A DNA stretch of 13,851 nt from an uncultured Eggerthellaceae bacterium (GTDB lineage Bacteria; Actinomycetota; Coriobacteriia; Coriobacteriales; Eggerthellaceae), in NCBI GenBank assembly GCA_964469815.1, contig CAYXZC010000051.1, positions 1 through 13,851 on the forward strand. Direction: 5' to 3'. Below the pieces are notes generated by a model. That model searched no databases. It was not told the DNA's origin and worked only from the letters and a program-made list of their open reading frames with translations. Positions 2,841 through 13,652 of this stretch are shown here, piece after piece. Numbering within the stretch: the first letter of the stretch is position 1; each line of letters begins with the position of its first letter. The position numbers and the translations under genes are program-made.

Positions 2841-3566
2841 TTACAGTCCGAGAACCTTCTTAAGCGAAGAAGCCTTTCTACGGCTAACGTCGATCTTGCG
2901 ATCGACATTGTTGAGGGTGAGAAGCAGCTTGCCCCCTTCGACCGATTCGATCTCTTCCACAGTTGAAAGGTTAACGAGATAAGAACGATGCACGCGGAAG
3001 AACCCATGCCCATCGAGGCGCTTCTCGAGCTGCGCCAAGCTGGCCGTTGAGAAATAACGGTTCGTATCGGTCTGGATGTAGGAATAATCATCGCGAGCCT
3101 CGACGAAGCGGATCTTGTCGATCTCGATGAGGATCTTCTTCTGCGCCTTCTCCACAGGAATGCGCTCGCTCTTCTGAACCTGCGCTTGAAGGGCAACCTG
3201 CTCACGAACGCGAGACACAGCCTGCGCCAGACGCTCAGTCTCAACAGGCTTTTGCAAATAGTCGATCGCGTTCACGCGGAAAGCGTCCATCGCGTGTTCG
3301 CTGTAAGCTGTAACGAAGACAACCGCCGGTGGATACTTCAGATTCTGCAAAGCCTCCGCCAAACGCAGACCCGTAGCCTCCGGCATGTTGATATCCAAGA
3401 ACATCACATCACATGGATACTCTTTGAGCTTCTCGATGGCCTCGCGCACGCCTGCGGCCTCTGCCACGACCTCGACACCGCCGACCTCTCCTAGCAAGTA
3501 AGTGAGCTCTGAGCGCGCTGGTGCTTCATCATCAACAATGATCGCTTTGAGCACAATGTCCTCCAT
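2841..3566 (-). CDS. LytTR-family response regulator: REC receiver domain plus LytTR DNA-binding domain (AgrA/LytR/AlgR type).
   Basis: Translation MEDIVLKAIIVDDEAPARSEL...FLDINMP...VVFVTAYSEHA shows receiver-domain acidic and Thr/Lys motifs. C-terminal ...FFRVHRSYLVNLSTVEEI... is the LytTR signature. I prefer the ATG at 3566-3564 as start because it gives a canonical ~241-aa protein with the DD pair at residues 10-11. The ORF track extends to a TTG at 3647, and an ATG at 3626 preceded by GAGG is an alternative. Stop TAA at 2841-2843. Confidence 0.85.
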   Translation of the reverse strand: MEDIVLKAIIVDDEAPARSELTYLLGEVGGVEVVAEAAGVREAIEKLKEYPCDVMFLDINMPEATGLRLAEALQNLKYPPAVVFVTAYSEHAMDAFRVNAIDYLQKPVETERLAQAVSRVREQVALQAQVQKSERIPVEKAQKKILIEIDKIRFVEARDDYSYIQTDTNRYFSTASLAQLEKRLDGHGFFRVHRSYLVNLSTVEEIESVEGGKLLLTLNNVDRKIDVSRRKASSLKKVLGL

Positions 3567-3732
3567 ATCCTTCGGATGCAGATGACTCGAGAGCAGTTTC
3601 ACGACGTGAGACCGTACTCGAACCATGTGCGTTGACCTCGAAATCAACCGTCAGTCAACAACTGTAGCATCTTTATAGCACGACACGCCGTATTGGAGAT
3701 AGAGTAGATTTGGCGCGTATTTTACGTTTGGC

Positions 3733-3845: not shown

Positions 3846-4832
3846 CTATCTCTTAGGAATACCCTCCAAGACGATGAAACGGGTACCGGATGCCAACAAG
3901 AGCTCATCGCCAGGATGAATCGAAACCACCGTTTCTGTATCGGAGTTGATATCTCGCTGATCATATGGGGCCTCAACCACCGTCTCTGCATGGTCCACAC
4001 CGCTTATGAGCACTGTCCCATGCGTAGAACCAAGCCCCTTAACGAGCCATTCGCCCTCTTCTGAATGCCAGATCAAAAGATGATGACCGGATACATCCGG
4101 ATCCACATCGTTAATCGCCCCTTCACCCAGAGCAAGCGAACCGATCTCAATCCCATCGATATTCGGATCCAACCAGTGAGGATTTCCTGAAAGGAACCCA
4201 TCAACAAGACGCATCAAAGCGAATGTCGGCATCTGCACATGATCCGTAGTCCGCGAATTGGCAGAACAAGATGGTGTTTTCGGAGTGATAAGGGGCGTTG
4301 CCATACCGGCTCCATGAACCCTTTTCGCAAAATCGATGACCTGCGATGCGGCTCTGTTCGCATTGGCGGTGCAGCCAGCTGTGATCAAGAGCACCATCGC
4401 CATTTCCGCACGCTCATTGACAGTGAATCCGCTTTCGTTCGAGAGTCTATGCAGAACGTTCTTATATATGGATACGTCTTGATGGGCCTTGGCAAGTGCC
4501 CAGACCATCTCTTCGCCCTCTTCCCCGCAGATCATATCAAGTATACGCTGACTCGAGAATGCAGTACGCTTCTGTGCTTTCAACCTCGAAACCACCCTGA
4601 GTGCACTCGCAGAATAATCAGCGAAATAATTCTCCTGAATAGAGCCGATCGGAGCATGCACGACGAAGCGTGATAGCCACGTTTTATCGTCGGTGCGACT
4701 CACAGGACTGATACCATCGGAAAGCGGTCTTCCCGACAGGATCAAAGATGCCAGCTCTTTATTGATAATTCCCCCGTAACGCTTCATTATGTCGAAAAGC
4801 GCTTCACATGGGGTAAGATCATCTTTCATCAT
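3846..4832 (-). CDS. FHA-domain protein. C-terminal forkhead-associated phospho-Thr-binding domain, with an N-terminal ~210 aa region of unknown fold.
   Basis: 328-aa ORF. The C-terminus VSGHHLLIWHSEEGEWLVKGLGSTHGTVLISGVDHAETVV...IHPGDELLLASGTRFIV matches the FHA pattern (..SR.HA.I... D.GS.NGT.VN ... L..GD.I.LG...F.F). The tandem start codons ATGATG (4832-4827) overlap the kinase stop TGA (4821-4819) by 14 nt, consistent with translational coupling. Stop TAG at 3846-3848. Confidence 0.75.
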   Translation of the reverse strand: MMKDDLTPCEALFDIMKRYGGIINKELASLILSGRPLSDGISPVSRTDDKTWLSRFVVHAPIGSIQENYFADYSASALRVVSRLKAQKRTAFSSQRILDMICGEEGEEMVWALAKAHQDVSIYKNVLHRLSNESGFTVNERAEMAMVLLITAGCTANANRAASQVIDFAKRVHGAGMATPLITPKTPSCSANSRTTDHVQMPTFALMRLVDGFLSGNPHWLDPNIDGIEIGSLALGEGAINDVDPDVSGHHLLIWHSEEGEWLVKGLGSTHGTVLISGVDHAETVVEAPYDQRDINSDTETVVSIHPGDELLLASGTRFIVLEGIPKR

Positions 4833-6756
4833 CTATCTTTGCTCCTCGAGATGACGGAGTCGAAATATCATCGATTCCATCATACAGCTCGCCACCGGGA
4901 TCGGAGTCCGCATTCAGCTTCACATTCATGCTTTCCAACAATTCGGCCTTGATATTCGATGATCTTGACGGATCGCTCGATCCTGATGATCTCGGAAGAG
5001 CGCGGAATCTTTTACGCATACGTGGTGCATGTACAGGAAAAGCCGTATCTACGACGAACGGACACCATGACATCACCGACACCGCGAAGATCGCCCAACG
5101 ATACAAATCTCCATAAGCCTCCGGATCGAACGCAGCAACATTCGTCAGGAGTATAAGCATAGCGCCTCCCGCAGCGATACCAATACTTCCGCGAACCAAA
5201 CTCGCTACGCTATCCCTTCGTGTTCCACGCGCCAGAACACCCAGAACAACTGGCAAGAAAAGAAGTAGGACCAAAAGCTCGGATCCAAGCCCCTCCAACT
5301 CGATCGAACCGACTTCAACGGAGAGCGGCTCCATTTGGATCAGAAAGGCCATGGTCACCACAACAGCGGCTCCAAGACCTACAGAAAGGCTCTTCCCAAA
5401 AGCGCGGATAAGATTACGCGCATATAGTGAAAACCGTTTGACACCTTTATTGATGAATGGTGCCCGGCAAGGCTCAAGGATCTCTCCACACAATGCACGC
5501 CCGATATTGGATGCGTACGAAGCGCAGAACGAATCCAGCGCATCATGCATCTCTTCCGCTGAAGGACGCTTTTTGGGATCGTCAACAAGGCACGACCGCA
5601 TGAGAGCCATCAAAGGTGCATCCACCTGTGAAAGAGACTCCGATATCTCTTGAGCAGTAGGCGCCGACGCTAATTCGGATATCGTGCGATGCAGAATAAC
5701 AGCCACCTCGGGTTCTCGTCTGAGCACAACGAACAGATCGTCATCTCCATCGTGGGCCGTCTTCGGCCTTGATCCTACGAAGCGAGGGCTTGCGTCCCCA
5801 TATATAAGAAGGCACAGAATGCTCGCTACAGCATATACATCCGAAGCCTGTGTGCATTTAGGGCATTCAGATGCTTTGGTCGCTACATAAGCCGATGGGT
5901 CGACCCTTGTCTCAGGAGCGGCGAATTCGGGCGTAGCGGCACCAAGGAACCCGTGATCGATATCCTCCACCACATCGATTCGCCCATCCGACGATACATA
6001 AGCTGAACTCAGGTCGATCAACCTTATATCGAACATCCCCTCTTGGATCTGCTCTTCGATAGATTGGCGTGATGTGTCGATCATTATATTCCTGAGTGAG
6101 AGATCCCCATGACCTATCTCGCGATCAAGCACACCGCTACGAGCCAGCACATCAAATATATCGCGCCCCAGTCGCGCAGCAACAAGAGGCGAAAGACGTC
6201 CCGAATCATCGATGGACATACGCGCCATCGCCATCAGTAGATCCTCGCCTTCGATCCATTCCATCACAAGGACAGGACGATCTTCCAAGTACGCTCTTCC
6301 GTAAAGCTTTGGATACCCCTTGATCCCCGACAACATACGATGTACTTCATACTCGCGCTCAAAATGAGGGTCGGTCTTTCTGGATGCATCTGACGCAACA
6401 GCCTTGCCAAACGGTTCGGTATCCTCCACGATCTCCGCATCCATCGTTCGGTGCACATCAGCTTTCCTCACTTTCAAAGCGAAATGCTCCCCGAATACAT
6501 TCGTTGCGTGAATGATGCTGCCTGTGCTCCCCTCGCGAGTACGTGAGCGATCTATGAACAGAGTGCTGAATCTCCTACAATATGATTCTCTTTGACCATC
6601 GGAAAGGGTCATAGGAGCACAGAAATCTTCCAAGTAGATTCTTTCAAGGAAAGCAATGGGCTCCTCTTCGAATATCGCTAGAGAGTCGTCTTCCTCTTCG
6701 TCCGTCATCGTAACAGGAAAAGCTTCTACCTGGATGATATCAACATCACGCGCCAT
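4819..6756 (-). CDS. Hanks-type (eukaryotic-like) protein kinase with a 4-helix transmembrane module and a C-terminal tail. The catalytic loop and DFG motif are atypical.
   Basis: 645 aa. Kinase subdomains are recognisable: FALKVRK (beta3 Lys), E in EREYEVHRML (alphaC), catalytic loop GHGDLSLRNIMID (HGD in place of HRD; LSLRN resembles the Tyr-kinase HRDLAARN more than the Ser/Thr HRDLKPEN), IDLSS (DFG replaced by DLS), TPEFAAPE (APE), DVYAVASILCLL (DxWSxG-like), and KRPSAEEM (subdomain XI Arg). Four hydrophobic helices follow: LSVGLGAAVVVTMAFLIQ, LGSELLVLLLFLPVVLGVLA, SIGIAAGGAMLILLTNVAAF, LYRWAIFAVSVMSWCPFVV. The start ATG is 12 nt after the upstream gene's stop. Confidence 0.85.
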   Translation of the reverse strand: MARDVDIIQVEAFPVTMTDEEEDDSLAIFEEEPIAFLERIYLEDFCAPMTLSDGQRESYCRRFSTLFIDRSRTREGSTGSIIHATNVFGEHFALKVRKADVHRTMDAEIVEDTEPFGKAVASDASRKTDPHFEREYEVHRMLSGIKGYPKLYGRAYLEDRPVLVMEWIEGEDLLMAMARMSIDDSGRLSPLVAARLGRDIFDVLARSGVLDREIGHGDLSLRNIMIDTSRQSIEEQIQEGMFDIRLIDLSSAYVSSDGRIDVVEDIDHGFLGAATPEFAAPETRVDPSAYVATKASECPKCTQASDVYAVASILCLLIYGDASPRFVGSRPKTAHDGDDDLFVVLRREPEVAVILHRTISELASAPTAQEISESLSQVDAPLMALMRSCLVDDPKKRPSAEEMHDALDSFCASYASNIGRALCGEILEPCRAPFINKGVKRFSLYARNLIRAFGKSLSVGLGAAVVVTMAFLIQMEPLSVEVGSIELEGLGSELLVLLLFLPVVLGVLARGTRRDSVASLVRGSIGIAAGGAMLILLTNVAAFDPEAYGDLYRWAIFAVSVMSWCPFVVDTAFPVHAPRMRKRFRALPRSSGSSDPSRSSNIKAELLESMNVKLNADSDPGGELYDGIDDISTPSSRGAKIDDER

Positions 6757-6768
6757 ATCGATATGCGC

Positions 6769-7680
6769 CTAAAGCTTGATGGTGGCTGCACGCGCCCGGC
6801 ATTCAGCAAGATAACGTACTTCTCCGTTTGAATTCAGATGAGGCCTTAGGATTCCTGGAGCATTCTGCTTCAGAAAACCATTGACGGTTCGCATCGTCGA
6901 ACATGAATTCGTAAGATCGTTGAAACATGTACTTAGCTTTTGAGCCTGGTCATACCACTTGGACTTATTCAGTACATAGTTTCCGTTATACCTGTAAGAA
7001 CTGACCCTGATACGGGCTTGGTCACACTTATGAAGCAATGCTGCCGCATCCGTTGGAGCACAACTAGCATGCGTTATATTGGGATCGGTCGAATTCATCG
7101 TAGAGTAAAGATGTTCGAAACCCTCGCAAACTTCGTTGTAGTAAGGCTCAAGGTCTGCATAGCATGCAACCAGATGAGCGTGAATTTCCTCTTCTACCTC
7201 AGGGGGTAACGCATCCGATGTCGAAGAGGATCCCGCGCTTCCTCCCGGCTGAGATGGATAACCGCCTGTGTTATCAGGAAGAGCAACGGAGTCAGTTGGA
7301 CCCTGCGAGGTTGAATCCGAACCGGATCCGGATGAATCACCAAGAATGGATTGTATAGATGAGAAAGCAGGGCCGCCTATAAGGGGCGAAAGTCCGAGCG
7401 TACCCCCTTCGCTGACAGCCGAACTGCCATTCGTTGTCTCAAGAGCGTCAGGAGAACTTGCATCCGTGTGCGATTCGGAGGTTTCGGGGGTTTCCTGGTC
7501 GGAGTTGAAGAACGAATCAGCCACAGAAGCCACTTCGAACGGACTAGTTAAGACCGCAGGGATGCTAACGGCATAAGCGATCGCGCTGAACCCAACGAGT
7601 GTCAACGAGAAAACGGCTAACGAGAACAGCACATGGGAAGAAGCTGTCCTGGAGAACTTCAGCTTGTTTGCTCGTTTCAT
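6769..7680 (-). CDS. Secreted or membrane-anchored protein. It has an N-terminal signal/anchor, a Ser/Gly/Thr/Asp/Pro-rich low-complexity linker and a C-terminal 8-Cys domain of unknown function.
   Basis: Start re-assigned to the ATG at 7680-7678 (MKRANKLKFSRTASSHVLFSLAVFSLTLVGFSAIAYA...). It has AGGAG 9 nt upstream and a classic n/h-region signal peptide with AYA-V. The ORF-track extension to 7851 adds 57 non-signal residues across the promoter region and is probably spurious. Linker: ...DSSGSGSDSTSQGPTDS...GGSAGSSSTSD.... The C-terminal ~140 aa carry 8 Cys. Stop TAG at 6769-6771, 12 nt before the kinase ATG, so this is the first gene of the operon. Confidence 0.65.
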   Translation of the reverse strand: MKRANKLKFSRTASSHVLFSLAVFSLTLVGFSAIAYAVSIPAVLTSPFEVASVADSFFNSDQETPETSESHTDASSPDALETTNGSSAVSEGGTLGLSPLIGGPAFSSIQSILGDSSGSGSDSTSQGPTDSVALPDNTGGYPSQPGGSAGSSSTSDALPPEVEEEIHAHLVACYADLEPYYNEVCEGFEHLYSTMNSTDPNITHASCAPTDAAALLHKCDQARIRVSSYRYNGNYVLNKSKWYDQAQKLSTCFNDLTNSCSTMRTVNGFLKQNAPGILRPHLNSNGEVRYLAECRARAATIKL

Positions 7681-7981
7681 AGCTTCGCACTCCTTTTGAA
7701 ATCCATCAAAATAGTTGCACAACCACGCGAAGCTCTCAGCCCCTATAATCTCAAAACGATCTACATCCCGAAAAGAGGGCGTTCGCGCAGTTACCACACT
7801 GTCTTTCAGGATGCATGCAAGCAAACCAACAAAGAAAGCAAACGCCCTCATATCGGTTGGTTATATACATGCTGTCCTATCAAACCTGACCGGATCAGGC
7901 CATCAGTGTGGTACCCATGATTCTATCAAATCAGATGCTGGCGCGCGATGTTGATGCATGAAGATATCGCCGCTCATTCAA

Positions 7982-8043
7982 ATTCGGATTTTGGTAAATA
8001 TTCATTCGGATTTTTGCAGATCTCTATTCGGATTTTGGTAAAA
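7982..8043. repeat. Three direct repeats [A/T]ATTCGGATTTT[G/T]G with exact 22-bp periodicity. Candidate direct-repeat operator, of the kind bound by LytTR-type regulators.
   Basis: Copy 1 ATTCGGATTTTGGTAAA at 7982-7998, copy 2 ATTCGGATTTTTGCAGA at 8004-8020, copy 3 ATTCGGATTTTGGTAAA at 8026-8042. Copies 1 and 3 are 17/17 identical. The phasing of 22 bp is about two helical turns. They lie in the divergent intergenic region between the minus-strand kinase operon (start 7680) and the plus-strand lipoprotein gene (start 8240). Confidence 0.6.
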
Positions 8044-8129
8044 GCTTATCTGTGCATGAGTTTAGCGTGTGAGCTTAGGACGGTTTTAAACTCACGCTTT
8101 TTGTTTCCCAACTCTCTATGTTCCTGCAA

Positions 8130-8183
8130 TCTATGCGCCCTATGAGCCTTTGCCCCCCATCTCCATTCCAAAAGTTGTACAAC
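8130..8183 (+). promoter_or_regulatory. Promoter/operator element A. A conserved ~55-bp segment ending in the perfect palindrome GTTGTACAAC (8174-8183), 57 bp upstream of the lipoprotein gene.
   Basis: TCTATGCGCCCTATGAGCCTTTGCCCCCCATCTCCATTCCAAAAGTTGTACAAC aligns with 9761-9811 (element B), differing by a few substitutions and a 3-bp indel. GTTGTACAAC is its own reverse complement. Confidence 0.45.
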
Positions 8184-8239
8184 CGCATGATCTAATCTAA
8201 GGCGAAAATGCACCTTGCAAATCACAGAGAGGAGCATTG

Positions 8240-8980
8240 ATGAAAAGGATCATGTATATGATATTGGCTTCTTCCTTAGCCATCAGTTTTGGACTTTGCG
8301 GGTGTCAGAGTAACGAAGTAAACCAAGAAACATCGAAGCAAACTCAAGAAGAGCAAACGTCACCCGATGAAGAAACTCAATCCGTCATTGATGAGATCAA
8401 CTCTATAGGAGATGTAACTTTAGAGAAAAAAGAGTTGATCGATTCAACGCGCCAAGCATATGGCTCCTTAAATTCAGAACAAAAGAATCTCGTTGACAAC
8501 TATGATGTCTTAAAAGCCGCCATATCTTCTCTTGATGAGCTTGAAAGAGCCGAAGAAGAGAAAGCAAAGGCTTTTGCAGTGGGAGAAACTGTCGAAGATG
8601 AAGACTTCAGAGTCACGTTAACAAGCGCACAGCTTGATTCGATACTTGAAAGCCCGAATTCACGTACCTCTTGGGAACCAGACAGCAATGCAACATTTGT
8701 GATATTGGAGTTTGACATAGAAGCATTGAATTCGAATCAAATAGCTGTCGATTCGGGTGCGGTATCGAATGTCGTTGCAACCTACAATGGCAACACATAC
8801 AAGGGCTGGGATTACAAATACGTCGTAAGCGAATTATGGCTTTCAGCAAAACGTACGTATTTTGAGGCAAATATGCCGGTACACGTTTATGTATACACCT
8901 CAATCCCTTCGTCAGCTACATCCGGGTCTGTAACGGTGGATATGGATATTGCTGGGCAAGATAAACAGATCGTAATTTGA
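8240..8980 (+). CDS. Lipoprotein of unknown function: lipobox signal peptide, acidic linker, and a C-terminal beta-rich domain. Tentatively DUF4352/DUF5067-like.
   Basis: ATG at 8240 preceded by GGAG 5 nt upstream; the track's TTG at 8237 is disfavoured. N-terminus MKRIMYMILASSLAISFGLCGCQS has positive n-region, hydrophobic core and Cys, giving a lipobox-like LCGC. An E/Q/T-rich linker is followed by ...ATFVILEFDIEALNSNQIAVD... Stop TGA at 8978-8980. Confidence 0.8.
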   Translation: MKRIMYMILASSLAISFGLCGCQSNEVNQETSKQTQEEQTSPDEETQSVIDEINSIGDVTLEKKELIDSTRQAYGSLNSEQKNLVDNYDVLKAAISSLDELERAEEEKAKAFAVGETVEDEDFRVTLTSAQLDSILESPNSRTSWEPDSNATFVILEFDIEALNSNQIAVDSGAVSNVVATYNGNTYKGWDYKYVVSELWLSAKRTYFEANMPVHVYVYTSIPSSATSGSVTVDMDIAGQDKQIVI

Positions 8981-9079
8981 TAAGGACTTATGACCTGAAG
9001 ATTTTTAAGCCACCAACTCAACGCATTGGACAAAAGTTCATGGATTCATGGTATTTGTAGGAAAAGGAAAGGTAGAAAA

Positions 9080-9634
9080 ATGAAGAGAATAACAAAAGCG
9101 GTCGTAGCTGCAGCATGTACGGCACTACTATCCCTGTCGCTATATGCTTGTGGAACGAATTCCAATAATCAATCCGCTTCTGATAATTCCAACAGTTCCA
9201 GTAGCACACAAGCAGAAAACAACTACGATCCAAAAGTTGAAAGCATCGATTATTCCACCGAGCGTGGCAATATCAAATATGAATACGTAGAAAAAGCGAA
9301 TAGCGAGCTCACAAAGAGCGACAATGCTTTGTTGTTCGTGTTCGACTTCACAAACGAGCAAGATGAACCATCTCCTGCTATCTCACCATTCATTATCGAG
9401 TTCTATCAGAATGGAGTAGAACTGAGCGACTCCCCTTCCTATAGCTCTTCCGGCGGAGATCAATATGAACTACTACGTGCCTCTTCTGACAGCGTTATGA
9501 AAGGCAGCACCATTCAGTTCGGACAGCTCGTTGTACCAAAGGATGACAGCCCTATCACCATCACGGTCAAGCCAAATGGGTATTTCTCAGACAATGAATA
9601 CCAAACCATGGAAGTCGCCATTGATTCTTTGTAG
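9080..9634 (+). CDS. Lipoprotein of unknown function, paralogous in architecture to 8240-8980.
   Basis: ATG at 9080 with GGAAAGG 8 nt upstream; the track extension to 9026 is disfavoured. N-terminus MKRITKAVVAAACTALLSLSLYACGTNSNNQSAS is a signal peptide plus Cys. An S/N-rich linker is followed by ...ALLFVFDFTNEQDEPSPAIS...ITITVKPNGYF, which parallels the ATFVILEFD... segment of the upstream lipoprotein. Stop TAG at 9632-9634. Confidence 0.8.
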   Translation: MKRITKAVVAAACTALLSLSLYACGTNSNNQSASDNSNSSSSTQAENNYDPKVESIDYSTERGNIKYEYVEKANSELTKSDNALLFVFDFTNEQDEPSPAISPFIIEFYQNGVELSDSPSYSSSGGDQYELLRASSDSVMKGSTIQFGQLVVPKDDSPITITVKPNGYFSDNEYQTMEVAIDSL

Positions 9635-9703
9635 GATGATAGATGTAACGCCCTTTGGATAAACGCCACCTGCATAAAACGTAAGCATGAATGCATGAAT
9701 TTA

Positions 9704-9741
9704 GTGTGAGGCTGGGGCAGTCCCAGCCTCACACTTTTTTA
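9704..9741 (+). terminator. Strong rho-independent terminator after the second lipoprotein gene.
   Basis: GTGTGAGGCTGGGG (9704-9717), loop CAGT, then CCCAGCCTCACAC (9722-9734), followed by TTTTTT (9735-9740). Confidence 0.85.
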
Positions 9742-9760: not shown

Positions 9761-9811
9761 TCTATGCACCCTACAAGCTTTTGCTCCCCACCCTTCAAAA
9801 AGTTGTACAAC
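9761..9811 (+). promoter_or_regulatory. Promoter/operator element B. A second copy of the ~55-bp element with the palindrome GTTGTACAAC (9802-9811), 60 bp upstream of the SPFH gene start.
   Basis: TCTATGCACCCTACAAGCTTTTGCTCCCCACCCTTCAAAAAGTTGTACAAC. It is followed by the -10-like TAATAT (9812-9817). Confidence 0.45.
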
Positions 9812-9870
9812 TAATATGAGAAATTCGAGGATATGCTTCTCCCAAAAAGTCACCTTTGGAAGAAGCGATA

Positions 9871-11037
9871 ATGAGTCTGATCGATGTCATCAAATATGAG
9901 GGAGATAACCAGACCTTCGTTTGGAAACACCCTAAAGAAGACTTCAACACCGGATCCCAGCTCATAGTTCACGAAGCTCAAGAAGCGATCTTCTTCCTTA
10001 ATGGCCAAGCTCTAGATTCATTTCAACCGGGACGATATGAGCTCGAGACCCAAAACATCCCACTTCTCAATAAAGCAATAAACCTTCCTTCTGGTGGAGA
10101 AAGCCCTTTTCATGCAGAAGTGTATTTCATCAATCTTGTTGAACAGATGGGAATAAGTTGGGGCACGAACTCCAAGATCCAATTCATGGATCCTGAGTTC
10201 AACTTCCCTCTTTCGATCGGCGCTTCAGGAGAAATGGCCTTGGCAGTCCGCGAGCCGAAAAAACTTCTTCTGAAGATAGTGGGAACCGAGGCGATCCTTT
10301 CACAAGATAGTCTGATCAGATACTTCAAATCTTTTCTGCAAACAAGGATCAAGACCGCTATCGCACAGGCGATCCCTGAGAACAACCTATCCATCTTTCA
10401 AATGGATGCGCACCTTGTTGAGCTTTCCAACGAAGTGAAGAAACGCCTTCAATCTGATTTCAATGAATATGGCCTTGAGCTCACTCAGATGATGGTCACC
10501 ACAGTGGTCAAACCTGAAGGGGATCCGATATACGAACAATTCAAAGAGCTTTATTTCCGCCAATATGCAGATGTGAAAGATGCACAGATCAATCAGCAAG
10601 TTGGCGTCATCAATCAGGAGACCATTGCTAAGCAGACTGTTATAGAGGCAAAAGGAATTGCCGAGAAACGACAAGTCGAAGGTTACACCTATCAACAAGA
10701 GCGCGGCTTTGATGTTGCAGAACAAATGGCGCAAAACGAAGCCGTAGGCGAATTCGCGAATATGGGTATCGGTCTTGGAATGATGTCAGGTATTGGGGGC
10801 ACCATGGGCACTGTGGTTGGTGGAGCAGTGTCTGAAGCTATGGGAGATCCAGCGCTGTTCGGAGGAGTCGCTCAAAACGTTCAGAATCAAACCTCTAGTG
10901 CCATGTCTGATTCGAAGCAGCCAATAGCTGTTTCAGGCAACAATGAAGATAAGGCTTTTCGTTTTTGCTCTGGCTGCGGACATCAATTCGCCGATAACGA
11001 TAGATTCTGCCCTCAATGCGGGAAACGGAGGGAATAG
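9871..11037 (+). CDS. SPFH/Band-7 (stomatin-prohibitin-flotillin-HflKC) superfamily protein of the COG4260 type (B. subtilis YdjI-like; 'virion core protein' misnomer family). It carries a C-terminal C4 zinc ribbon.
   Basis: ATG at 9871 (MSLIDVIKYEGDNQTFVWKHP...) has GGAAGAAG 5 nt upstream; the track's TTG at 9856 is disfavoured. N-terminus IDVIKYEGDNQTFVWKHPKEDFNTGSQLIVHEAQEAIFFLNGQALDSFQPGRYELETQNIPLL matches the conserved COG4260 opening (IDVIEW.....L.WR.P.....I.NGA.L.VRESQ.AVFV.EGQ..D.F.PG.H.L.T.N.P.L). A Gly/Met-rich segment follows. The C-terminus FRFCSGCGHQFADNDRFCPQCGKRRE gives CxxC-x10-CxxC. Stop TAG at 11035-11037. Confidence 0.85.
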   Translation: MSLIDVIKYEGDNQTFVWKHPKEDFNTGSQLIVHEAQEAIFFLNGQALDSFQPGRYELETQNIPLLNKAINLPSGGESPFHAEVYFINLVEQMGISWGTNSKIQFMDPEFNFPLSIGASGEMALAVREPKKLLLKIVGTEAILSQDSLIRYFKSFLQTRIKTAIAQAIPENNLSIFQMDAHLVELSNEVKKRLQSDFNEYGLELTQMMVTTVVKPEGDPIYEQFKELYFRQYADVKDAQINQQVGVINQETIAKQTVIEAKGIAEKRQVEGYTYQQERGFDVAEQMAQNEAVGEFANMGIGLGMMSGIGGTMGTVVGGAVSEAMGDPALFGGVAQNVQNQTSSAMSDSKQPIAVSGNNEDKAFRFCSGCGHQFADNDRFCPQCGKRRE

Positions 11038-11043
11038 ATCATT

Positions 11044-11709
11044 ATGGACATCAAAAAGCAACACATTGCTGTTATTGTTCTAGCTATCGGCTTCATTGCA
11101 TACGCATGCATTTGCCTCCTTTTATTCGAAAAAGGTATCGTCTTTTGGGCTGAACTTGGTTTCACCTTTGTAGCCTTTTTGCTCACTGCTTACACAACAC
11201 AACGGCCTGAAAGCAAGAAGCTCTTTTTAAACCTCCCTCTTTATGTGATCGCATCGGTATATCTCACGATTCAGTTGATCATAAGCATCGTTTTCATGGC
11301 GGTGCAAACAGCATGCGAACCATGGTGTTATGTGGTCAGCGTCGCTCTTCTAGCTTTTTATCTATGCATTTTGTTAGCCACTCGGGCAACCGTTCAGCAT
11401 ATTGGTGAAGTTGATAAGAGCATCCAACAGAATACAGCTTTCATCAAGAATCTGATCTTGAAGCTGGAAGCATTGAGGGATGAAGTCGACGGATCGCGAC
11501 AGGAAGAAATCGAAGATTTGATCTCTCTTGCCCGCTATTCGAATTTGCAATCCTGTGAAGCTTCACGAGAGATCGAAATAAGCATCACAGAATCTGTGGA
11601 AGAACTTGATTCGGCTATTCAAAACAACGATCGCGATGCCATATCCGAGGCAGTAGATCAGATATCAAAACAGCTCAGACAACGCGACCGAGTTTGTAAG
11701 GTGAAGTAG
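11044..11709 (+). CDS. Integral membrane protein with 4 predicted TM helices and a C-terminal acidic coiled-coil cytoplasmic tail. No recognisable family.
   Basis: ATG 6 nt after the SPFH stop; GGAGGG upstream. Hydrophobic helices: IAVIVLAIGFIAYACICLLLF, LGFTFVAFLLTAYTT, LPLYVIASVYLTIQLIISIVFMAV, VVSVALLAFYLCILLA. The tail has heptad-like charged character (...LKLEALRDEVDGSRQEEIEDLISLAR...). Stop TAG at 11707-11709. Confidence 0.75.
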   Translation: MDIKKQHIAVIVLAIGFIAYACICLLLFEKGIVFWAELGFTFVAFLLTAYTTQRPESKKLFLNLPLYVIASVYLTIQLIISIVFMAVQTACEPWCYVVSVALLAFYLCILLATRATVQHIGEVDKSIQQNTAFIKNLILKLEALRDEVDGSRQEEIEDLISLARYSNLQSCEASREIEISITESVEELDSAIQNNDRDAISEAVDQISKQLRQRDRVCKVK

Positions 11710-11715
11710 CGATTA

Positions 11716-12192
11716 ATGCCTCGGATTCCTGCACATAAAATCGAAGAAAAAGCGATTAACCTTATTCGCTCAAATGTTGCTTTATTTGATGCGTTATATC
11801 GTGAGGTATCTCATAGAGATTATGGTATAGATGCAGTTATTGAACTCTTCGACCATGACGAAATAACAGGTCGACTCATTCTATTACAAGTAAAAGGATC
11901 AGAGTCAAGATATACGATCGGCACAAGATCCGGTGTTGTATCCTGTCAAGTATCGCAAGGAACACTTAAGTATTTGAATCAAAACAACATACCTGTTGTT
12001 CTTGTTGCCGTAGACATAGCAAATCAATGTTTCTTTTACACGTGTCTTGCAGACACTGAAGTGGTTAATAGAAATGTCAATCAGCCAACCGTTCATTTAA
12101 TTGCGGAAAACGTATGTCAAAGAGAAGAATCTACTTTTACAGAATGGCTCAAAGAACTAGCAGAAGACTATTACGGAAGGCGGCAACAATGA
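11716..12192 (+). CDS. Small Mrr-like PD-(D/E)xK restriction-endonuclease-fold protein (DUF4365-like).
   Basis: 158 aa. The core HRDYGIDAVIELFDHDEITGRLILLQVKGSES matches the Mrr_cat/DUF4365 pattern (E..DyGiDg.iE ... h.vQvKs): Asp on the first strand, then an (E/Q)xK strand. ATG at 11716 is 6 nt after the upstream stop. Stop TGA at 12190-12192 overlaps the next ATG as ATGA. GC content is markedly lower than in the rest of the window. Confidence 0.7.
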   Translation: MPRIPAHKIEEKAINLIRSNVALFDALYREVSHRDYGIDAVIELFDHDEITGRLILLQVKGSESRYTIGTRSGVVSCQVSQGTLKYLNQNNIPVVLVAVDIANQCFFYTCLADTEVVNRNVNQPTVHLIAENVCQREESTFTEWLKELAEDYYGRRQQ

Positions 12193-13652
12193 AAGCAATG
12201 CAGTGCGAGCTTTGTGGTGCAACGGAGATTGTCAAAGATGGAGATTTTTTTGTCTGCCAGAGTTGTGGGATGAAATACACTCCTGAAAGCGCAAAAAAGA
12301 TGGTGATTGAAGGTGTTGTTCAGGTTGAGGGAACGATTTCTTTAGATGAAAGTTTAAAGCTTAAAAACTACATCGATCGCGCTGAATCATTACTAGATGA
12401 AAAAAGATATTTGGAAGCATACCAGGAATGCCGTGAAGGATTGCACATCGATTCCATGAACCCCTATCTAAGAATCATTGCTCTTTTTGCTGATTATGCG
12501 CCAATGTCTAAGGAACTCGATTGGTGTAAAAAAGGTGAAAAGATCGGAGAAGAAACAAGCTCTTGCCTGAAAGAGATTCATAATCAAATTGGCGACTGTG
12601 AAGATTTCGGTAAAGTGTGCGCGAAGTATTTATCTCTAATTAAAGCATTAGAAACAGAGAACTATTTCGCATGTAGAACTGCTGCAAAACAAGCTGATGT
12701 AGAATTGATCGCTGTTTTGGGCACGATCAACATAAATGGTAGTTACAGCGATTCTTCTCGAATGAAGGACAAATATGCGATAGAAGCCAAGAAAAAGGAT
12801 GCAGAGAACGGGCTTTTTGATGGATTCATAGGTACTGCAGAATTAGCTCAAACGATACTCGAATTAATTAAAGATCCAATTCAAATTGGACGACAAAATC
12901 TATGGACAATGCATGTCTATACAGAAGGTGCCAGCAAATTCGATGAACCACTATATCAATCTCGGTTAAAAAAGATACAACAGGAATTTTTTAAATACAC
13001 CAAAATGTGTGATGATTTCGAGGAAAAGCAGAAAAAGATCGAACAAGAAAAGAAAGCGAAAGAATACTGGGATAAACATCCAGATAAGAAGATAGCCATC
13101 AATAGTCTGATTGAAACCAAATCTAAAGAGCAAGAAGAGATAGATGAACAAATTCGACAACTGCAAGAAAAGATTGATAGAGTAAACCAAGAAGTTCCTC
13201 TACGGTTCGACGATGCTAATTGGGATATTAAAAAGAATTTGCTACAGAATGAATTAGAGGAAATAGCGCAAAAGATAAGCGGCCTCTCAGTATTTAGTTT
13301 TAAAGAAAAGAAGAAACTCGATGCATTGCATATTGAGAAAACTGAACAATTGGATCAATTAAACTCAGAAAAGAAGAAAGCGTTATCAATCGCAAAAAGA
13401 AAACAATCTGACGCAATAAAAGAACTCACTTCTCCTCTAGAAGAGGAGAAGGATCGATTGATTACTAAACGAAAATCTTTGGAAAAACTAATTAATAAGA
13501 AGACTGAAGAACTTGAAAACCCAATACCAACTCAAATACCCAAAAAAGAATATCATAGCGAAAACACTTCGGAACATGCGCCCTCAAATTTGAACGTAAA
13601 TGTCATTAATCAAAGATGTATCACAAAAAATGGCGGAAAAGATAAAGTGTGA
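12189..13652 (+). CDS. Zinc-ribbon protein with an alpha-helical (TPR-like?) middle region and a ~170-aa Lys/Glu-rich coiled coil. Unknown function.
   Basis: Preferred start ATG at 12189 (MKAMQCELCGATEIVKDGDFFVCQSCGMKY), 8 nt after GGAAGG and overlapping the upstream stop. The track extension to 12114 runs through the preceding gene and is unlikely. CxxC-x14-CxxC N-terminal zinc ribbon. Helical segment LDEKRYLEAYQECREGLHIDSMNPYLRIIALFADYA. Residues ~290-460 are dominated by E/K/Q heptads (EKQKKIEQEKKAKEYW...EQIRQLQEKIDRVNQE...). Stop TGA at 13650-13652. Confidence 0.75.
   Translation: MKAMQCELCGATEIVKDGDFFVCQSCGMKYTPESAKKMVIEGVVQVEGTISLDESLKLKNYIDRAESLLDEKRYLEAYQECREGLHIDSMNPYLRIIALFADYAPMSKELDWCKKGEKIGEETSSCLKEIHNQIGDCEDFGKVCAKYLSLIKALETENYFACRTAAKQADVELIAVLGTININGSYSDSSRMKDKYAIEAKKKDAENGLFDGFIGTAELAQTILELIKDPIQIGRQNLWTMHVYTEGASKFDEPLYQSRLKKIQQEFFKYTKMCDDFEEKQKKIEQEKKAKEYWDKHPDKKIAINSLIETKSKEQEEIDEQIRQLQEKIDRVNQEVPLRFDDANWDIKKNLLQNELEEIAQKISGLSVFSFKEKKKLDALHIEKTEQLDQLNSEKKKALSIAKRKQSDAIKELTSPLEEEKDRLITKRKSLEKLINKKTEELENPIPTQIPKKEYHSENTSEHAPSNLNVNVINQRCITKNGGKDKV

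Follow-up and report, generated by a model that had tools for sequence, protein, structure and literature searches.

The DREN (DUF4365) nuclease domain has so far been understood only as an effector coupled to Argonaute proteins in SPARDA systems, where it is switched on by filament-induced tetramerisation. The isolated SPARDA DREN domain is a monomer with no activity detectable in vitro, and its collateral DNase (and RNase) activity appears only once filament formation unites four domains (PMC12205087). In NbaSPARDA a Mg2+ ion is coordinated by D41 and Q60; the mutants D41A and Q60A have no activity and K62A is impaired (PMC12205087). The triple mutant D41A/Q60A/K62A is described as dead in the SPARDA literature, and Q62A/K64A was made as the inactive mutant of the TmuRE-Ago complex (PMC10810196). 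The SPARDA authors gave the topology of DUF4365 as Hjc-like and different from that of Mrr. Here we describe a free-standing protein of this family, the product of gene 3 of a four-gene operon on a 13,851-nt stretch of DNA from an uncultured Eggerthellaceae bacterium (contig CAYXZC010000051.1, assembly GCA_964469815.1), hereafter the window. A near-identical contig, L001, is found in the metagenome-assembled genome GCA_965617865.1, where the locus lies near rpoB.

The gene 3 product belongs to the same Pfam family, and is predicted to have the same fold, as the DREN-APAZ proteins of SPARDA (NbaSPARDA, XauSPARDA, TmuRE-Ago; PDB 9jsb, 9jt2, 9qcc, 9qbq, 9vx6), with ~19-23% identity over the domain and D39/Q58/K60 in the places of D41/Q60/K62. 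In both settings the nuclease is an effector module that stands beside swappable alternatives (TIR, SIR2, other nucleases). By contrast, no APAZ fusion is present: in the PDB and PADLOC matches only the N-terminal nuclease portion of the targets, which are 420-460 aa long, is aligned, and the gene 3 product ends at residue 158. Its partners in the window are SPFH, four-transmembrane (4-TM) and zinc-ribbon/TPR proteins, and no PIWI or Argonaute gene occurs among the open reading frames (ORFs) of the window or within +/-10 kb (20-kb context) in L001. As these partners are not Argonaute, the guide-RNA/target-DNA trigger of SPARDA cannot apply. A DREN domain that is free of both APAZ and Argonaute and placed in a cassette anchored by an SPFH protein matched no PADLOC model and is apparently new.

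The partners recall a second described system, PspA-YdjGHI (SamGHI) of B. subtilis, in which YdjI, a soluble SPFH protein, forms part of a membrane-stress sensor and is brought to its site by membrane proteins from neighbouring genes (PMC8581546, PMC11237479). The gene 1 product has the YdjI architecture (Band-7/SPFH domain, low-complexity linker, C-terminal zinc ribbon), a likeness taken solely from their common Pfam family and the domain layout given in those two papers. It likewise has a dedicated, co-encoded membrane protein, gene 2 being 6 nt downstream, and YdjG carries N-terminal zinc ribbons, as do the proteins encoded at the fourth position of the cassette. However, no PspA gene is present in the window or in L001, the gene 2 product is an unrelated 4-TM protein rather than a TPM-domain YdjH, and the cassette operon carries immune-type effectors (DREN, TIR, SIR2, HEPN). 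Short prokaryotic Argonaute systems, Thoeris, CBASS and Avs share the general logic of a conserved sensor or scaffold with a variable nuclease, TIR, SIR2 or HEPN slot, but none of their defining sensors is present. Genes 1, 2 and 4 have no PADLOC v2 model, and no system in PADLOC-DB v2.0.0 has all its component models matched by the window operon.

The gene 3 product and its operon

The features of gene 3 are as follows.

11716..12192, + strand: gene 3, ATG start, 158 aa, predicted stand-alone DUF4365/DREN-type PD-(D/E)xK nuclease
11743-11745, + strand: codon of E10 (helix alpha-1), read from the sequence
11830..11895, + strand: catalytic core codons, with D39 at 11830-11832, E43 at 11842-11844, Q58 at 11887-11889 and K60 at 11893-11895
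12189..12192, + strand: ATGA start/stop overlap of genes 3 and 4, with similar overlaps or short gaps in relatives

The ORF is present as described in the initial annotation, which had called its product a small Mrr-like, DUF4365-type PD-(D/E)xK protein amounting to essentially a bare nuclease domain. A Pfam scan matched it to PF14280 (DUF4365) at E=9.4e-17, with 61.8 bits vs a gathering cut-off of 24.3, over profile positions 4-130 of 139. DUF4365 was the sole return, and Mrr_cat (PF04471) gave no match at E<=1. Among PDB sequences only SPARDA DREN-APAZ proteins were matched, in their DREN (DUF4365) domain, and a profile of 36 stand-alone relatives aligned with solved DREN chains over almost the whole domain (E=2.5e-11 and 2.3e-10). 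PADLOC returned a domain-level match only, to the N-terminal 'REase' part of Argonaute-associated models (Aga_REase).

An AlphaFold2 model built on 30 homologues (pLDDT 88.3, pTM 0.85) places a single domain at residues 6-157. Its helices (6-21 and 81-89) and strands (26-30, 40-46, 49-62, 74-78 and 94-100) follow the alpha-beta-beta-beta-(beta)-alpha-beta order of the restriction-endonuclease core. When this model was compared with the PDB by Foldseek, SPARDA DREN domains made up the entire top 15 (probability 1.0, lowest E 9e-9), and I-Ssp6803I, Hjc and type II restriction enzymes came next. I-Ssp6803I and the archaeal Hjc Holliday-junction resolvases are only 6-14% identical to the gene 3 product, which differs in lying in an effector slot rather than in a recombination or intron context, and nothing points to site or junction specificity. 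The protein consists of the catalytic domain and a short, family-specific C-terminal helix (residues 140-157), with no DNA-recognition domain besides the catalytic core. Both the profile search, with its significant PD-(D/E)xK-family match, and the model, with its restriction-endonuclease core, bear out the PD-(D/E)xK and DUF4365 parts of the earlier label, as well as the single-domain nature of the 158-aa product. The Mrr part is too loose, given the missing Mrr_cat match and the DREN, I-Ssp6803I and Hjc neighbours. Mrr and Mrr_cat type IV enzymes have the PD-(D/E)xK superfamily and D...QxK in common with gene 3; they differ in topology according to the literature, and gene 3 has neither a profile match to them nor a DNA-reading N-terminal domain. 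By sequence and model, the gene 3 product is securely a DREN/DUF4365-type restriction-fold domain and, as such, a new member of a known nuclease family.

The active-site set is E10/D39/E43/Q58-x-K60; the segment DYGIDAVIE...GRLILLQVKGSES covers residues 35-64. Among the 36 stand-alone relatives, which are 24-44% identical to the gene 3 product, D39, E43, G52, Q58, K60 and Y86 are invariant and H7, R29, D35, Y36 and G37 nearly so, a pattern repeated in two further alignments that include cassette-embedded copies. In a pairwise alignment to the PDB chain, D39/E43/Q58/K60 stand opposite D41/E45/Q60/K62 of NbaSPARDA. The D...QxK site proposed at first is hence intact, being invariant in the relatives and aligned with residues essential in SPARDA. 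Two details of that proposal need correction. The catalytic aspartate had been placed at position 36, which is a tyrosine; it is D39, and D35 is also near-invariant. QxK had been regarded as a variant motif, but family invariance and the SPARDA and TmuRE mutational data make it the canonical motif of DUF4365. The protein is predicted to be a metal-dependent, sequence-non-specific nuclease.

Gene 3 is the third gene of a four-gene operon, of which the other parts are:

9703..9735, + strand: intrinsic-terminator-like hairpin, 15-bp stem and T-run, ending the preceding lipoprotein genes and forming the upstream operon boundary
9791..9811, + strand: 21-nt motif with palindrome GTTGTACAAC, ~60 nt 5' of the SPFH start
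9871..11037, + strand: gene 1, 388 aa, soluble SPFH/Band-7 protein (Band_7_1) with low-complexity linker and C-terminal zinc ribbon
11044..11709, + strand: gene 2, 221 aa, membrane protein whose N-terminal part has four transmembrane helices, start 6 nt past the end of gene 1
12189..13652, + strand: gene 4, 487-aa soluble protein with N-terminal CxxC...CxxC zinc ribbon, TPR-like unit, helical middle and long coiled coil

The junctions within the operon measure 6 nt, 6 nt and -4 nt. Gene 3 starts 6 nt downstream of gene 2, with a Shine-Dalgarno sequence AAGGTG, and its TGA stop (12190-12192) overlaps the gene 4 ATG (12189-12191), 8-13 nt 5' of which lies GGAAGG, a Shine-Dalgarno-like sequence. 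An in-frame ATG at 12114 is the longer alternative in the ORF listing, but 12189 is taken as the start of gene 4 because homologues begin there, with M1 (near-)invariant and C6/C9 invariant in alignments of fourth-position proteins. The ATGA coupling of genes 3 and 4 is real, as had been claimed, and the arrangement recurs in relatives. No internal terminator was found inside the operon, gene 3 has no promoter or terminator of its own, and it is co-transcribed, and probably co-translated, with its three partners. The initial annotation had paired gene 3 with the larger downstream gene; that gene is indeed a partner, but the unit extends to four genes, of which the upstream SPFH and 4-TM genes are the most conserved.

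Gene 1 matches PF13421 (E=1.4e-43), with Zn_Ribbon_1 at residues 370-390 and no transmembrane helix; its ATG start at 9871 is backed by homologues and by the L001 gene call, vs a TTG at 9856 in the ORF listing. The gene 2 product has no Pfam family. It carries a conserved C-terminal helical domain of ~105 aa, predicted from the positive-inside rule to be cytoplasmic. The coiled coil of gene 4 bears YW(S/D)xHP and GLFxxKEKK motifs. No useful match to the four operon proteins came from NCBIfam or PHROGs. A second copy of the GTTGTACAAC motif, 90% identical, lies at 8163-8183, 5' of a lipoprotein gene that starts at 8237, and the two copies may be a shared promoter or operator, which would imply co-regulation. 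In L001 the first strong terminator (13160-13190) comes only after one further gene beyond gene 4 (12184-13137, 317 aa), outside the window. This gene may be a fifth member of the operon; it is not conserved in L126, a related locus described below.

Conservation of the cassette and exchange of its third gene

Close homologues of the gene 3 product are rare: a word-indexed search returned three relatives only. An exhaustive search gave 440 matches, 40 of them below 1e-10, which define a subfamily of DUF4365 proteins that stand alone and are 150-175 aa long. Among the closest relatives with recoverable context is P0070 (44% identity), encoded in L126, a locus that carries the same four-gene cassette as the window. 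Identity between the two loci is 61% for the SPFH protein, 24% for the 4-TM protein and 51% for the zinc ribbon of the partner, whose C-terminal coiled coil is similar. The same four genes are also found in L007 (metagenomic), L011-L013, L015, L016 and L018. In reference genomes the cassette surrounds 6 of 19 small-DUF4365 loci, all six in Clostridia. Searches of phage and plasmid records yielded only distant, unannotated DUF4365 proteins.

A locus scan anchored on the 4-TM family collected 80 distinct loci; its metagenome part used a narrow 4-TM alignment and is biased to the L011/L012-like clade of the 4-TM protein. Of the 57 loci that extend far enough to show what precedes the 4-TM gene, 52 have an SPFH gene immediately upstream, at a distance of -41 to +18 nt. 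Slot 3, the next position after the 4-TM gene, is occupied by DUF4365 in 7 loci and by some other small protein in 25, and is empty in 20; these counts omit the window and L126. The gene that follows slot 3 (slot 4) encodes a zinc-ribbon N-terminus in 27 of 28 cases, and most junctions flanking slot 3 fall between -19 and +15 nt.

The alternatives found in slot 3 include SIR2_2 (36.9 bits vs 24.5 in the profile search), TIR_2 (74.3 bits; PADLOC PDC-S66 at E=1e-43, and ThsB), RiboL-PSP HEPN (51.4 bits vs 28.4) and DUF2971 (PADLOC PDC-S31 at E=3e-25), together with several families that have Rx4H motifs and sub-threshold HEPN matches, and uncharacterised proteins. These families are a standard repertoire of interchangeable immune effectors, and the swapping of the slot with them is the strongest argument that the gene 3 product serves as an effector. 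The phage-defence-effector context proposed at first is in keeping with this exchange for TIR, SIR2 and HEPN and with the TIR domains of slot 4.

Several recurrent slot-3 families have no Pfam entry (L068:7716-8399, L105:2369-2926, L087:7702-8205 and their relatives). Their members are of 228 aa, of 179-186 aa with an RNDMMH motif, and of 168-211 aa with an IRNALAHG motif, the last of these families having HEPN matches below threshold only. They are candidate new effector domains.

Among 42 slot-4 proteins TIR_2 is present in 32, TPR repeats in 30 and DUF6273 in 26. The cytoplasmic part of the TIR-type proteins reads zinc ribbon-TPR-TIR-TPR-coiled coil, and 12 of 13 have one strong transmembrane helix before a C-terminal DUF6273. 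Gene 4 shares the invariant zinc-ribbon cysteines with these relatives, and the TPR unit located after their TIR domain has a counterpart in its residues 45-114 (hhalign probability 95.9%). Its AlphaFold2 model is all-alpha and comprises the zinc ribbon, hairpins that are TPR-like and, at 254-443, long helices modelled with very high confidence; Foldseek gave no match to this model below E=0.03, and TPR-like matches only. No enzymatic domain is recognisable in gene 4 and, as it is without TIR, DUF4365 is the sole recognisable enzyme in the window cassette. The YWxxHP and GLFKxKEKK motifs are common to a small subfamily (L126, P0045, P0046, P0064).

Two other identities were considered for gene 4 and rejected. 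A degenerate TIR is at odds with the all-alpha model and with a profile-profile match to the TPR unit only, and neither a hidden enzymatic domain nor a PspA/ESCRT-III-like domain was found by AlphaFold2 model, Foldseek or profile-profile comparison. Most slot-4 proteins have the layout of a Toll-like receptor, for example in L011 (8497-11202), L013, L015, L018, L059, L068, L073 and others. Published papers tie DUF6273 to phage receptor-binding proteins diversified by diversity-generating retroelements, and one cassette-flanking protein matched reverse-transcriptase models.

The cassettes are linked to mobile elements. The families that recur most among the 118 proteins flanking the long loci are the tyrosine integrases (9), followed by serine recombinases (3) and relaxases (2). 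The window cassette has a guanine-plus-cytosine (GC) content of 34-47%, vs ~60% in the rpoB region. In L126 the corresponding values are 42-46% for the cassette vs 63-72% for the flanks, a low-GC island in a high-GC genome.

Proposed function and competing explanations

On balance we favour the explanation that gene 3 encodes a non-specific nuclease effector, lodged in the interchangeable third slot of a four-gene, membrane-associated, integrase-linked conflict cassette and activated by assembly; we hold this to be probable, by a fair way short of certain. The parts would be a YdjI-like soluble SPFH/zinc-ribbon protein, a 4-TM anchor whose helical domain faces the cytoplasm, the effector, and a zinc-ribbon/TPR scaffold or sensor. 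By analogy with described systems, we infer regulation by assembly, a trigger and a defence phenotype. The SPFH/4-TM complex and the zinc-ribbon/TPR/coiled-coil protein might form a sub-membrane platform that holds the nuclease as an inactive monomer. Perturbation of the envelope or membrane by a phage, or binding of a phage component by the TPR/coiled-coil protein, could be the trigger upon which the platform concentrates the nuclease and drives higher-order assembly. DREN domains brought together in this way, as by tetramerisation in SPARDA, would switch on, and indiscriminate degradation of DNA (possibly RNA) would stop both the infected cell and the invader (abortive infection).

More tentatively, and with the balance tipped somewhat against so broad a claim, the cassettes might represent an undescribed mobile anti-phage family of gut and rumen Firmicutes, with the layout SPFH-zinc ribbon, 4-TM, variable effector and zinc ribbon-TPR(-TIR-TM-DUF6273), in which a membrane SPFH scaffold controls interchangeable effectors (DREN, TIR, SIR2, HEPN) and which has here moved into a high-GC host. 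The window would then be the first use of DREN outside Argonaute systems, by oligomerisation driven from a membrane scaffold and not by guide-directed filaments, and the commonest fourth protein would have a Toll-like-receptor layout with an extracellular, lectin-like DUF6273. There is a substantial chance that the whole cassette is an undescribed defence system. No description of the SPFH-anchored cassette was found in the open-access literature, which is not proof of novelty. In PADLOC-DB v2.0.0 nothing significant was returned for genes 1, 2 and 4 (for gene 4, ZorA at E=0.75 only).

Several observations weigh against the effector-cassette explanation. The lack of a PADLOC model for the SPFH, 4-TM and slot-4 proteins fits novelty, but also leaves the defence role without independent support, and known defence genes in the flanks are sparse (an AbiE pair, a reverse transcriptase, DUF2971/PDC-S31). 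The 20 4-TM-anchored loci in which slot 3 is empty imply that the DUF4365 effector is accessory and not essential. In L018, in an otherwise intact cassette, the DUF4365 copy (7998-8252) is truncated to 84 aa and ends just past the QxK strand, suggesting decay of the effector in some lineages. Small DUF4365 genes lie outside the cassette in 13 of the 19 reference-genome loci, two prophages included, so that the protein can function, or can at any rate persist, where SPFH partners are absent. Gene 4, unlike most slot-4 relatives, has no TIR, transmembrane helix or DUF6273, and the window version of the cassette may be a reduced one. Lastly, in the family-profile comparison the alignment to the Nba chain left out helix alpha-1, so that a tetramer interface like that of SPARDA would be hypothetical here.

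The loci outside the cassette also speak for an explanation in which the small DUF4365 protein is an autonomous enzyme, homing-endonuclease-like or Hjc-like and junction-resolving, that landed between genes to which it has no functional link. The two prophage copies (L014:1612-2091, L026:2695-3198), both with intact catalytic residues, lie between the large terminase and portal genes, an assignment verified by Pfam in L014 and made for L026 from sequence similarity seen by eye. This is a typical location of free-standing homing endonucleases and packaging-associated resolvases. However, the same slot holds TIR, SIR2, HEPN and DUF2971 proteins, none of which is a homing enzyme, and gene 3 is embedded in its operon by junctions of 6 and -4 nt, with no signals of its own for transcription. 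Moreover, the four-gene order is kept between the window and L126 despite only 44% DUF4365 identity, and no DNA-recognition domain extends past the catalytic core. We regard an autonomous enzyme as unlikely.

An explanation to which we allow the same small chance is that slot 3 is a hotspot that collects independent, single defence or toxin genes on an SPFH/4-TM/zinc-ribbon backbone that is perhaps a membrane-stress module of mobile elements. In that case too DUF4365 would be a nuclease of defence, though with sensing and regulation independent of the backbone. The hypervariability of slot 3 and its vacancy in the 20 loci would be expected here, some of the families in slot 3 correspond to candidates that PADLOC treats as stand-alone (PDC-S66, PDC-S31), and the cassettes adjoin integrases and recombinases. 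Against this, the very tight junctions of slot 3 favour co-translation within one operon, a bare 158-aa DREN has no sensor and the isolated domain is inactive, and slot 4 usually bears an immune-type TIR, so the backbone is not neutral housekeeping.

The gene 3 product might also be a catalytically silent adaptor whose fold serves only DNA binding or protein assembly within the SPFH complex. Co-option of PD-(D/E)xK domains as inactive modules is frequent, and in vitro no activity is detectable for DREN in isolation. E10, D39, E43, Q58 and K60 are nevertheless (near-)invariant at 25-45% identity, which is unexpected for a non-catalytic module and makes an adaptor very improbable. Least credible of all is an Mrr-type modification-dependent restriction endonuclease: Mrr shares the D...QxK motif chemistry and the best PADLOC match is an 'REase' N-terminal domain model, but Mrr_cat is not matched at E<=1, the structural neighbours are DREN, Hjc and I-Ssp6803I, the 158 aa hold no N-terminal winged-helix or other DNA-reading domain, and the SPARDA authors set the DUF4365 topology apart from that of Mrr.

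If the effector-cassette explanation is true, a free-standing DREN with an SPFH scaffold would be a case of the same effector plugged into a quite different sensing apparatus, and it would connect SPFH proteins, whose poorly defined roles in bacteria are known mainly from PspA-YdjGHI, with immunity. The cassette is a natural experiment, with one backbone that carries nuclease, NADase or RNase effectors, or none. It could reveal how events close to the membrane give rise to a response of the abortive-infection kind, and could yield a compact nuclease activated by assembly.

Other features of the window and related loci

The window holds no Rfam RNA family and no tRNAs, and repeat searches found nothing array-like near the operon. 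Upstream, on the - strand at 3846-7851, it encodes three proteins: one of 328 aa with an FHA domain, a 645-aa Ser/Thr protein kinase with a C-terminal transmembrane region, and one of 360 aa. L126 (7361-11381, - strand) encodes homologues of the first (47% identity) and of the kinase (39%), on the opposite side of its cassette. Downstream of the stretch covered by the window, three paralogous AAA_14/DUF4143 ATPase genes are found in L001 (14166-19223).

Two lipoprotein-like ORFs lie at 8237-9634 of the window, one of 247 aa and one of 202 aa with DUF5067. The equivalent region in L001 (6992-7927) and L002 is a single call, of 311 or 296 aa, which suggests an indel or frameshift between the assemblies. 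Between the lipoprotein gene and the divergent gene for the 360-aa protein there are three direct repeats ATTCGGATTTTGGTAAA with 22-nt spacing (7982-8042), a spacing that we take to resemble that of sites of LytTR-type regulators. A LytTR response regulator is encoded in the window at 2841-3647, on the - strand.

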